Positions 981 to 4,651 of a stretch of DNA of 64,000 bases are shown here, in pieces. The stretch spans positions 3,958 to 67,957 of the forward strand of contig CAMBHR010000003.1 in NCBI GenBank assembly GCA_945867195.1, given 5' to 3'. The notes under the pieces are model-generated. The model was not told the DNA's origin, searched no databases, and was given only the letters and a program-made list of their open reading frames with translations. Each line of letters starts with the position of its first letter. The stretch's first letter is position 1. The position numbers and the translations under genes are program-made. The stretch comes from an uncultured bacterium. GTDB taxonomy: Bacteria > Bacteroidota > Bacteroidia > Bacteroidales > Bacteroidaceae.

Positions 981-1121
981 ACATTATTTTGGTAAATACA
1001 AATTATAAACTAAATTTCGCCCCGATTATTGCGCTGGGCATAGGGTGCGACCTCAGCGCACAGCCTCTTGAGACGCAATAATCGGGACGCATTTTTACAA
1101 CCTTTAATCGCTTTAGTTTCC

Positions 1122-3281
1122 ATGAAAGTCTACAATTCTCACGAAATCAAGAACATTGCACTTCTCGGTAACGATGGCTCGGGTAAGACCACACTGACCG
1201 AAGCCTTGCTTTTTGAGTGTGGTCAAATCAAACGGCGCGGACGCATCACCGCAAAGAACACCGTGTCAGACTATTTCCCCGTGGAGCAGGATTACGGCTA
1301 CTCTGTCTTCTCCACCGTCTTCCATACGGAGTGGGCCGGCAAGAAACTCAACATCATCGACTGCCCGGGCTCGGACGACTTCGTTGGTGCAGCACTCACC
1401 GCCCTTAACGTAACCGATACCGCCCTGTTGCTCATCAACGGCAACTTCGGTCCTGAAGTCGGCACACAGAACCATTTCCGCTACACCGAGAAACTCAGCA
1501 AACCCGTCATCTTCCTCGTCAACCAACTCGACAGTGAGAACACCGACTATGACCAGGTGGTAGAAAACCTCCAAGGCATTTATGGAAACAAAGTGGTGCC
1601 CGTACAGTATCCCATACAGACCGGACCGGACTTCCATGAACTTATTGACGTTATCCTCATGAAGAAACTCACCTGGAAGCCTGAGGGCGGTGAGCCGACA
1701 TTGGAGGATATTCCCGAAGCAGAAAAGGAGCGCGCCGAGGCCATGCATCGTGCGCTCGTAGAGGCTGCAGCAGAAAACGATGAAGGACTGATGGAGAAAT
1801 TCTTTGAAACAGAACAGCTCACCGAAGACGAAATGCGCGAAGGCATCCGCAAGGGTATGGTTACGCGCAGCATCTTCCCCGTGTTCTGCGTTTGCGCTTC
1901 CAAGAATATGGGTGTGGGACGCTTGATGGAATTCCTCGGCAACGTAGTACCCTTTGTCGATGAAATGCCTCCCGTTCACAACACGCGTGGTCAGGAAGTC
2001 AAGCTTGACCCCGAAGGCCCCACTTCCATCTACTTTTTCAAGACTGGTGTAGAACCCCATATCGGCGAGGTGCAGTACTTCAAGGTAATGAGCGGTACGG
2101 TACACGAGGGCGACGACCTCAATAATTCAGACCGTGGCTCCAAGGAGCGTATGGCACAGCTCTTCGTATGTTCCGGTGCCAACCGCGAGAAGGTGGAACA
2201 GCTCTCTGCAGGCGACATCGGCTGCACCGTCAAGCTCAAAGACGTGCGCACCGGAAACACCCTCAACGCCAAGGACTGCGAAAACCGCTTCAACTTCATC
2301 AAATACCCCAACCCCAAGTTCACCCGTGCCATCCGTGCCCTCAACGAAGCTGACACAGAGAAGATGATGGCTGCCCTCAGCCGGATGCGTCAGGAAGACC
2401 CCACGTGGCAAGTGGAGCAGAGCAAAGAACTGCGTCAAATCCTTGTTCACGGACAAGGAGAGTTCCACCTCCGCACCCTCAAGTGGCGTTTGGAGAACCT
2501 TGACAAGATTCCTGTGGAGTTCTATCCCCAGCGCATTCCTTACCGAGAAACTATCACTCGTATGGCACGTGCCGACTATCGTCACAAAAAGCAGAGCGGT
2601 GGTGCAGGCCAGTTCGGTGAGGTTCATCTCATTGTTGAGCCTTACAGCGAAGGAATGCCTGATCCCACTGTTTATAAGGTAGGAAACCAGGAAATCCGCG
2701 TGGCCATCAAGGGTAAGGAAGAGATTCCCTTGGAATGGGGCGGCAAGCTCGTATTCATCAACTCCGTTGTGGGTGGTGCCATTGACGCACGCTTCATGCC
2801 CGCCATTCTGAAAGGTGTAATGAGCCGCATGGAGCAGGGACCGCTCACCGGAAGCTACGCCCGTGATGTCCGTGTGGTTGTTTACGACGGCAAGATGCAC
2901 CCCGTTGACTCAAACGAACTCTCCTTCATGCTTGCAGGCCGCAATGCCTTCAGCCAAGCCTTCAAGGAAGCAGGTCCGAAAATCCTCGAGCCGATTTATG
3001 ATGTTGAGGTGTTCGTGCCCGCCGATAAGTTGGGCGATGTGATGAGCGACCTTCAGGGTCGTCGTGGCATGATTATCGGCATGAGCAGCGAGAACGGTTA
3101 CGAAAAGCTTCAGGCCAAGGTGCCCCTCAACGAAATGTCGTCCTACGCCACCACGCTCAGCTCCCTCACTGGCGGCCGCGCCTCGTTTATCATGAAGTTC
3201 GCCAGCTACGAACTCGTACCCGGCGACCTGCAGACCAAGCTTGTGCAGCAACACGAGCAAGAATTGTCTGAAGAAAAGTAA
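1122..3281 (+). CDS. fusA2: Elongation factor G paralog (EF-G2 type)
   Basis: EF-G domain order with YRETI and HKKQSGGAGQFG; G1 is GNDGSGKT, switch II is DCPGSDDF; domain IV insertion; start taken at ATG 1122 (MKVYNSHEIKN). Confidence 0.9.
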   Translation: MKVYNSHEIKNIALLGNDGSGKTTLTEALLFECGQIKRRGRITAKNTVSDYFPVEQDYGYSVFSTVFHTEWAGKKLNIIDCPGSDDFVGAALTALNVTDTALLLINGNFGPEVGTQNHFRYTEKLSKPVIFLVNQLDSENTDYDQVVENLQGIYGNKVVPVQYPIQTGPDFHELIDVILMKKLTWKPEGGEPTLEDIPEAEKERAEAMHRALVEAAAENDEGLMEKFFETEQLTEDEMREGIRKGMVTRSIFPVFCVCASKNMGVGRLMEFLGNVVPFVDEMPPVHNTRGQEVKLDPEGPTSIYFFKTGVEPHIGEVQYFKVMSGTVHEGDDLNNSDRGSKERMAQLFVCSGANREKVEQLSAGDIGCTVKLKDVRTGNTLNAKDCENRFNFIKYPNPKFTRAIRALNEADTEKMMAALSRMRQEDPTWQVEQSKELRQILVHGQGEFHLRTLKWRLENLDKIPVEFYPQRIPYRETITRMARADYRHKKQSGGAGQFGEVHLIVEPYSEGMPDPTVYKVGNQEIRVAIKGKEEIPLEWGGKLVFINSVVGGAIDARFMPAILKGVMSRMEQGPLTGSYARDVRVVVYDGKMHPVDSNELSFMLAGRNAFSQAFKEAGPKILEPIYDVEVFVPADKLGDVMSDLQGRRGMIIGMSSENGYEKLQAKVPLNEMSSYATTLSSLTGGRASFIMKFASYELVPGDLQTKLVQQHEQELSEEK

Positions 3282-3361: not shown

Positions 3362-3405
3362 TGCCGAGTCGAACAGGTTGTATAATCTGTCGGCTCGGCA
3401 TTTTT
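3362..3405 (+). terminator. Intrinsic terminator after fusA2
   Basis: tgccgagtcga...tcggctcggca stem followed by ttttt. Confidence 0.7.
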
Positions 3406-3492
3406 GTGTGGGCTACTGGCAACCCTGCTTTGCATAACCTTGCGTGGAAAGGAAAAAATCATTGCTTTTCATCTTTTTGTCATCAAAAAACG

Positions 3493-3523
3493 TGTGTGCA
3501 GTTCTTTTTTAACTCTAATTTTG
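3493..3523 (+). promoter_or_regulatory. Bacteroidetes sigmaA promoter for the small-ORF transcript
   Basis: TGTG (3493-3496), 19-nt spacer, TAATTTTG (3516-3523). Confidence 0.55.
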
Positions 3524-3661
3524 CCTCTGTAAAGGAAACAGTGAAGTCCCTGTGCCGAGCACTTCCCAACTTCACAACTCGACGAAGCAACACAATAATT
3601 TATCAGGATAATAGACTTGCCCTTCGAAAGGCGAGGGGCGTAATTAAGACGAAGACTAAAC

Positions 3662-3820
3662 ATGGAAAAGAACAAGAACATCGTCATGCTCCGCTATCGT
3701 ATAGACCGATACAGAGCCATGGGTAACGGCGCGATGTGCCAAGCCCTGGAAAGAGAATTGAACCGTTTGACAACGTCTGCGAAAAACCAAGGAAGTACAT
3801 CTTCTTATTCGGAAATGTAA
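3662..3820 (+). CDS. 52-aa small hypothetical protein (not in ORF track)
   Basis: Hand translation MEKNKNIVMLRYRIDRYRAMGNGAMCQALERELNRLTTSAKNQGSTSSYSEM; A-rich start context, upstream promoter, downstream terminator. Confidence 0.6.
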   Translation: MEKNKNIVMLRYRIDRYRAMGNGAMCQALERELNRLTTSAKNQGSTSSYSEM

Positions 3821-3841
3821 TTCCTGATGCAAGAATATCAT

Positions 3842-3886
3842 AGCCCGGAGCGCGGTATTTCGGTATCGCACCCCGGGCTTTATTGT
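3842..3886 (+). terminator. Terminator after the 52-aa ORF
   Basis: agcccgg...gcggtat-ttcg-gtatcgc...ccgggct hairpin followed by ttattgt. Confidence 0.65.
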
Positions 3887-4004
3887 GCTTTCACGTCAGG
3901 TTCTGCTCAACATACATTTCTGGTCAGTACATTTTCGCTTGTCTTCCGTAGCCGCATTTTTATGAATAGGCATTTAAGTGATGAGCGAGGTGTGATAACC
4001 AGAA

Positions 4005-4062
4005 GAACAAAACGAGAGAATTCTCTCCGCCGTGTGGCAGTGGGAATTCTCTCTTGTTTTTT
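4005..4062. terminator. Likely bidirectional terminator downstream of rpsP
   Basis: aaacgagagaattctc / gggaattctctcttgttt stem with T-rich tails on both strands. Confidence 0.65.
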
Positions 4063-4099
4063 GATTGCCGTTACTCCAAAGAAAGTGGAGTGCAGTTTG

Positions 4100-4651
4100 T
4101 TATGCTTCGGCGGGAGCCTCAGCTTCAGCTTCGGCAGCAGCGGCTGCTTCAGCCTGAGCGGCAGCTTCAGCTTCAGCCTTGGCTGCAGCAGCGGCGGCCT
4201 TCTTTTCGGCTACCTTCTCAGCAATCTTTTCGTTTACTTTCTTCTCGGCCTCCAAGCGAGCCTCGGCAGCGGCCTTCTTGTCAGCGGCCTTCTGGTTGGC
4301 AGCGGCAGTAGCCTTGTTGCTCTTTTCCAGCTTCCAAGCTTCAAACTTGGCCTGAGCAGCAGCTTCGTCGAAAGCTCCCTTGCGCACGCCACCCTTGAGG
4401 TGCTTCATCAGCATGACACCTTCACGCGAAAGGATGTTGCGTACGGTATCGGTAGGCTGTGCGCCGGTTTCCAGCCAATAAAGTGCCCGGTCGAAATTCA
4501 AATCTACTGTGGCGGGATTGGTGTTGGGGTTGTAAGTACCAATCTTTTCAGTAAACTTACCATCACGTGGTGCTCTTGCGTCGGCGATAACGATGCTGTA
4601 GAAAGCGTAACCCTTACGGCCATGACGCTGCAATCTGATCTTAGTTGCCAT
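4100..4651 (-). CDS. rpsP: 30S ribosomal protein S16 with Ala/Lys/Glu-rich C-terminal extension
   Basis: [33 protein letters not shown]; GAQPTDTV. Confidence 0.97.

Follow-up and report, generated by a model that had tools for sequence, protein, structure and literature searches.

The short stretch of DNA between the EF-G2 gene (fusA2) and rpsP in this Bacteroidaceae genome raises the question of whether it holds a regulatory RNA, a ligand-sensing leader or a gene for a small protein. The original prediction, made within the window (the whole stretch of 64,000 nucleotides that was analysed), had placed here a stand-alone 52-aa open reading frame (ORF) with its own promoter, structured leader and terminator, and had read it as a riboswitch- or sRNA-like leader controlling a small protein, or as a dual-function sRNA. 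Comparison of the homologous loci suggested that positions 3493-3892 are very probably a monocistronic unit, complete in itself, that encodes a conserved microprotein, and not a riboswitch unit or a purely non-coding sRNA.

The open reading frame and its family

The ORF lies on the plus strand at 3662-3820, is present as a single copy in the source genome and was skipped there by most gene callers. Its assignment as a microprotein gene of 52 aa was based on homologs, dN/dS, frame openness and an AlphaFold2 (AF2) model. When same-genus genomes were searched with blastn, the DNA similarity was limited to the first ~100 nt of the ORF (query 247-364, with the query starting at 3400), and an intact ORF of 44-52 aa was found at each of these loci; across all loci the length ranged from 41 to 52 aa. 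In the alignment of 61 distinct sequences, the sense frame was open in every one (61/61), the other five frames had stops in 43-61 of the 61, and the indels were whole codons only. The nucleotide entropy was 0.66, 0.35 and 1.15 at the first, second and third codon positions of this alignment, showing that third positions vary most, and the codons varied at invariant Gly, Asn, Cys, Gln and Tyr residues. The median pairwise dN/dS was 0.057 in the core (783 pairs), and a value of 0.127 was obtained for ORF 3662-3820 against its homolog in the nearest relative (locus L011), indicating purifying selection on the protein. Conservation of the ORF together with its dN/dS had been proposed as a check of the original prediction, and the outcome, with homologs in 231 species, spoke for the ORF.

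Thirteen columns were invariant in the 61-sequence alignment (M1, L10, Y12, R16, Y17, M20, G21, N22, G23, M25, C26, Q27 and L29), and the peptide of ORF 3662-3820 has all 13 of these residues, with an E-value of 3e-22 in the family profile search. The family is marked by the core L-x-Y-[RQ]-[IL]-x-R-Y-x-x-M-G-N-G-x-M-C-Q-x-L in a peptide of about 41-52 aa, which the 52-aa protein carries in the form LxYRIxRYxxMGNGxMCQxL. The 231 species, with homologs of 41-52 aa, came from a pattern-plus-tblastn scan of one genome per species and belong to genera such as Prevotella, Prevotellamassilia, Alloprevotella, Bacteroides, Phocaeicola, Mediterranea and Caecibacteroides, with B. thetaiotaomicron, B. 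ovatus, B. xylanisolvens and B. finegoldii among the Bacteroides species. A HMMER scan of 1.84 billion protein representatives gave 179 clusters at 50% identity, nearly all of them small proteins. Only 2 relatives were returned by a word-indexed protein search, which reflects the sensitivity limit of that search for short queries and was overcome by the other searches. The gene was patchy: 49 of the 201 genomes of the taxonomic family had it, in 12 of 35 genera, as did 10 of 301 genomes from across the order (four to five families). It is therefore dispensable. One copy was present in every searched genome other than G516, in which contig C27 carries two tandem copies ~325 nt apart on the minus strand (89758-89886 and 90211-90342).

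Scans of the peptide against Pfam, NCBIfam, PHROGs and PADLOC gave no family, the only hit being a non-significant PHROG match (E 0.022). A search for evidence of translation in the supplements of MetaRibo-Seq and of a smORF multi-omics study from 2026 did not find the peptide. Public records call the homologs "hypothetical protein" (e.g. WP_175560898.1, WP_022102697.1 and UniRef K5BS73_9BACE). Such entries belong to the same sequence family but are annotation only, with no Pfam or NCBIfam model and no mention of a leader hairpin. The earlier statement that no named family could be assigned was borne out, since Pfam, NCBIfam, PADLOC, PDB and Rfam were all without a match. By its sequence, ORF 3662-3820 is a member of a widespread Bacteroidales family without assigned function.

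Promoter, terminator and genomic setting

The predicted promoter, TGTG followed by 19 nucleotides and a box, was present on the plus strand at 3493-3523. It is of the Bacteroidetes type: a -33-like TGTG (3493-3496) is separated by 19 nt from TAATTTTG at 3516-3523, which is a perfect Bacteroidetes -7 box (TAnnTTTG). This box aligned with TAAATTTG in L011, and a perfect TAnnTTTG recurred upstream of the ATG in 80 of 81 loci. The distance from box to ATG was 74-89 nt in 78 loci, 133 nt in L031 and, atypically long, 146 nt for the box at 3516-3523. Transcription was predicted to start at about 3527-3531; alternatively, it could start downstream of an imperfect box, TAATTTAT (3596-3603), inside the leader insertion described below. 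From the first of these sites, a sigma-ABfr-type promoter would drive a transcript of ~360 nt ending at a hairpin at 3842-3879.

Upstream of the promoter, a conserved block on the plus strand (3420-3486) was near-identical to L011 although the flanking intergenic DNA was divergent, and a similar AAAAA...CATTTTG block was seen in Prevotella-type homologs. This block may be a regulator-binding or UP-like site. In Bacteroides and three other families, a palindrome of 14-16 bp, TATGTTnTAnARCATA, was observed ~18 nt upstream of the homolog -7 box; it stands at ~2883-2898 of locus L045, at the same place in the Bacteroides-type loci L027-L090, and also in L095-L098. The palindrome had 5-6 sites per Bacteroides genome, compared with 0-1 for the reversed control, and when it was tested as a regulon operator the other sites were heterogeneous in spacing and context.

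The expected terminator was found on the plus strand as an intrinsic-terminator-like hairpin at 3842-3879 with a U-rich tail, UUUAUUG, the whole element covering 3842-3892. The hairpin had a dG of -23.9 kcal/mol and a z of -3.7, folded better than all 200 shuffles, and was missed by a generic terminator scan because the loop and T-run rules of the scan are strict. A strong hairpin with a T-run stood 20-65 nt past the stop codon in most homologous loci, and the fold of the whole transcript reproduced the hairpins at 3541-3575, 3619-3639 and 3842-3879. In the Bacteroides loci, conservation went up from about -125, continued through the terminator and was at background level outside. The unit was therefore taken to consist of promoter, leader, ORF and terminator. 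The locus here has the marks of such a unit: the -7 box, the terminator and, 15-22 nt upstream of the AUG, a hairpin whose loop is AAA(C/G)G. A leader peptide or attenuation uORF was also considered and rejected, as the ORF has its own terminator, the next gene, rpsP, is convergent, and the downstream genes differ among homologs.

The place of the gene between fusA2 and rpsP had been described correctly for this genome, but the synteny was kept in the closest relatives only. EF-G2 is encoded on the plus strand at 1068-3281 (NF058620, 1296 bits vs a cut-off of 1000). The start of its ORF was given as TTG at 1068, and the alignment to the NCBIfam EF-G2 model begins at residue 19; the real start is probably the ATG at 1122. 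Its predicted intrinsic terminator on the plus strand (hairpin 3362-3400, element 3362-3405; dG -25.9 kcal/mol, z -6.2, then TTTTT) was partly picked up by the generic scan and keeps fusA2 apart from the small-gene unit. On the other side, rpsP (4100-4651, minus strand) is convergent with the small gene and encodes a ribosomal protein S16 of 183 aa, which has a long C-terminal extension rich in Ala, Lys and Glu and matched the long-form S16 model (NF011094) from end to end. A long inverted repeat at 4011-4062 (gagagaattctct...gggaattctctc), with flanking T-runs on the two strands, probably serves as a terminator in both directions: it would end rpsP on the minus strand and could also stop transcripts that read through from the small gene.

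Among the homologous loci, the EF-G2 neighbor was common only to L011 and to L093, a contig of the same species. The neighbors in Bacteroides loci were transglutaminase-like, LytTR, YccF, heparinase-like or DinB genes, and a cytidine deaminase gene was the neighbor in Prevotella-type loci. Since the neighbor genes differ beyond the closest relatives, the position between fusA2 and rpsP is incidental, and synteny with EF-G2 or S16 was dropped as a functional clue. In an uncultured Prevotella genome (L012), an sRNA of the Bacteroidetes FopS family (RF04319, 72.4 bits vs a gathering score of 56) was observed on the minus strand at 4072-4140, ~1 kb downstream of the microprotein gene.

The leader and the readings of the transcript

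Both predicted leader stems were present, at 3541-3575 (hairpin 1) and 3619-3639 (hairpin 2), each with a z of -3.3 and each folding better than all 200 shuffles. Hairpin 2, on the plus strand, pairs gcccttcg (3619-3626) with cgaggggc (3632-3639) in an 8-bp stem closed by the 5-nt loop AAAGG, has a dG of -14.6 and lies 22 nt upstream of the AUG. Its pairing was kept in 96.1% of the cells in 67 distinct leaders, compared with 35-60% in controls slid by 1-3 columns. Two-sided changes were found at all of its pairs (8/8), with G-C as the closing pair in 39 sequences and A-U in 26, and none of 500 shuffles matched the observed covariation values. Because U-G pairs are abundant, hairpin 2 was regarded as an RNA structure of the sense strand and not as a DNA operator. 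Its loop was AAACG in 52 of the 67 leaders and AAAGG in 10, the hairpin at 3619-3639 being among the latter.

The stem of hairpin 2 was 15-22 nt away from the AUG, with a spacer of 63% A, and this spacing was kept even where an insertion lengthens the leader. In the Bacteroides transcripts, ~30 nt separate the hairpin from the 5' end. As the distance to the AUG is kept despite a longer 5' side, the role of hairpin 2 would be linked to the translation start region and not to protection of the 5' end. The same layout was found in three other families (f63, f131 and f135), which makes at least four Bacteroidales families in all, and the divergent homologs L031 and L054 had different hairpins at this place. 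A covariance model of the leader (R1) gave exactly one match per genome in 5 genomes, located at the microprotein gene; with a single match per genome, hairpin 2 was rejected as the mark of a regulon.

Hairpin 1, also on the plus strand, pairs gtgaagt (3541-3547) with acttcac (3569-3575), encloses gtgc-cga-gcac (3552-3562) and has a dG of -11.9 kcal/mol. It lies within an insertion of ~57 nt (about 3536-3601) that is absent from L011 and every other homolog, the leader being ~132 nt long here and roughly 60-75 nt in the other homologs. Hairpin 1 was identical in a 99%-identical contig of the same species and was seen in the source species only. The proposed check of leader covariation succeeded for hairpin 2. 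As no second copy of the 57-nt insertion was found in the genome, the insertion was ruled out as a dispersed repeat. We take it to be a recent, probably neutral addition upstream of the module formed by hairpin 2 and the start codon.

The B. thetaiotaomicron counterpart of the gene is BTnc253, an intergenic sRNA candidate of strain VPI-5482 (Ryan et al. 2020, PMC7366714, supplementary tables). BTnc253 extends over NC_004663.1 5813783-5814066 on the minus strand (283 nt). Its start site was mapped by dRNA-seq to 5814066, its promoter is a canonical PM1 promoter, and it is flagged with the candidate sORF_00383 at 5813860-5813997 (PMC7366714). We found that the sequence of sORF_00383 encodes a peptide homologous to the 52-aa protein, with the core RYxAMGNGAMCQ. 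The BTnc253 leader is 69 nt long, the start site lies 4-5 nt after the TAnnTTTG box, and the 3' end is 77 nt past the stop. This start site stands at the place equivalent to the one predicted here, which agrees with the original view of a stand-alone small-protein gene with its own promoter, structured leader and terminator. The two units are alike in having the TAnnTTTG promoter, the leader hairpin with an AAA(C/G)G loop, a small ORF and a terminator, and both are monocistronic and intergenic. They differ in that the BTnc253 peptide has 45 aa and the one here 52 aa, with a longer and different C-terminal tail; in that the leader here is ~60 nt longer, owing to the insertion with its extra hairpin; and in that the operator-like palindrome of Bacteroides is replaced here by another conserved block, the genomic neighbors being unrelated.

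BTnc253 was induced by bile salts with a log2FC of 3.34 (about 10-fold; -log10 padj 8.65; Ryan et al. 2024, PMC10994844, Fig. 2c source data) and appeared in the source list of mucin-induced genes (PMC10994844). By homology, the gene at 3662-3820 is probably also highly expressed and stress-inducible by bile salts and mucin. In the literature searched, BTnc253 and the peptide motif were named in no main text.

The listing of BTnc253 as an abundant, stress-regulated intergenic sRNA candidate raises the idea of a dual-function RNA, in which the mRNA of the microprotein would also base-pair as an sRNA through the hairpin loop, the A-rich region or the 3' end. Conservation of the non-coding parts of the unit among Bacteroides, and of hairpin 2 beyond what is ordinary for a 5' UTR, would fit this idea. 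However, conserved unpaired sequence is limited to the 5-nt loop and the A-rich tract before the AUG, and in the 3' UTR the presence of a terminator, but not the sequence, is conserved between genera. The supplements of the RbpB RNA-binding study do not list BTnc253, the literature search found it named in no main text, and selection acts overwhelmingly on the protein. We therefore consider a second role as a base-pairing RNA improbable.

A riboswitch, or another ligand-sensing leader controlling the small ORF, is far less probable. The ~132-nt leader does fold into two stable hairpins, but hairpin 1 and ~57 nt of the leader are missing from all other homologs, and the riboswitch-like leader of ~130 nt in the original prediction is thus reduced, in its conserved part, to one hairpin of 8 bp. 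This hairpin has a 5-nt loop, lacks internal loops and junctions and is too small for a ligand pocket, and a terminator/anti-terminator alternative was excluded at this place because no U-tract follows it; the conserved, covarying multi-helix aptamer and expression platform of a riboswitch were not seen. The Rfam check proposed for the leader gave no match near threshold: nothing relevant was found at permissive thresholds in the region here and in the B. thetaiotaomicron-type locus, or at gathering thresholds in six further loci, the best score being 23.4 bits vs a gathering score of 70, with all E-values at 0.2 or above.

A non-coding sRNA with a fortuitous ORF, conserved for its RNA structure or sequence, is equally hard to credit, for although the B. 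thetaiotaomicron copy is annotated as an sRNA and most gene callers skip the ORF in the source genome, the variation has a three-base periodicity with varying codons at invariant residues, the dN/dS is 0.06, the frame is open in 61/61 sequences with all other frames broken, and the indels come in whole codons.

Predicted fold, possible action and meaning

With the transcript read as the mRNA of a conserved microprotein, attention turns to the product. The AF2 model, computed with the family alignment, has a helix at residues 2-20, a turn at G21-N22, a second helix at 23-43 and a disordered tail at 44-52, with a mean pLDDT of 76.5 overall and ~90 over residues 11-30. The MGNGxMCQ motif was placed at the turn of this predicted helical hairpin. 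The tail is the diverging part of the protein, the L011 homolog being 73% identical overall and near-identical over the first 30 residues. The net charge is +4 for the 52-aa protein and +8 for the B. thetaiotaomicron homolog, and the sequence is hydrophilic with no hydrophobic stretch. The basic helical core given in the original prediction is in agreement with this net basic charge and the two modeled helices. The product is therefore predicted to be a small, basic, soluble two-helix protein with a variable tail. A type I toxin or membrane microprotein was rejected, as the peptide is hydrophilic and basic, is predicted to form a soluble helical hairpin and had no PADLOC match. A profile search of the PDB and a Foldseek search against the PDB gave nothing significant, only generic or designed helical hairpins with E > 0.7.

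The conserved face would be made up of the Tyr and Arg residues of helix 1 and the turn-proximal MGNGxMCQ with its invariant single Cys, leaving the tail free to vary. We infer that the microprotein most likely works by binding a macromolecular partner. In size and predicted fold, with two antiparallel helices and a tight turn, it resembles Rop of plasmid ColE1 and Sda of Bacillus subtilis. Such miniproteins can act by binding RNA hairpin loops, as Rop does, or a histidine kinase, as does Sda. Rop variants were among the weak fold matches, with E-values of 4-10 that are not significant, and neither protein has sequence similarity to the microprotein, so that the likeness is an analogy of possible action and not of membership.

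Shine-Dalgarno pairing is little used in Bacteroidetes, in which A-rich ribosome landing sites are typical. Translation of the microprotein would begin on the unstructured A-rich stretch (~63% A) just past hairpin 2. Lying at the upstream edge of the ribosome footprint, hairpin 2 could set the translation or the stability of its own mRNA. The most economical version would be a feedback in which the basic microprotein binds hairpin 2 of its own leader; alternatively, another RNA-binding factor may act through this hairpin. Autoregulatory leaders of the ribosomal-protein type likewise have a gene-specific covarying 5' UTR hairpin before the start codon of the mRNA of a basic protein. Unlike in those leaders, hairpin 2 leaves the start codon unsequestered, and no Rfam leader family matches it; RNA or ribosome binding by the microprotein is in this comparison a putative property. 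In its most specific form, the idea is that the family comprises RNA- or ribosome-binding stress microproteins that recognize their own hairpin with the AAA(C/G)G loop in a Rop-like autoregulation, the invariant Met/Cys turn possibly serving as a redox or bile-stress sensor. We put this forward as a speculative and, in all its parts, rather unlikely proposal. If it were true, the catalogued Bacteroides 'sRNA' would be the mRNA of a new class of post-transcriptional regulators common to the dominant gut Bacteroidales.

As far as the literature and catalogues searched show, the covarying leader hairpin and the strength of the protein-level selection had not been described before. For the source genome, the annotation gains a missed gene at 3662-3820, and the conspicuous hairpin 1 and the EF-G2/S16 neighborhood turn out to be incidental. 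Bacteroides and Prevotella are dominant in the gut of humans and animals, and roles are known for very few of their small proteins. BTnc253, listed as a non-coding sRNA candidate, is abundant and bile-inducible, and its protein family shows strong selection at the protein level in at least four Bacteroidales families. This favors a new label for BTnc253-like loci, as protein-coding or, at the least, dual-function.
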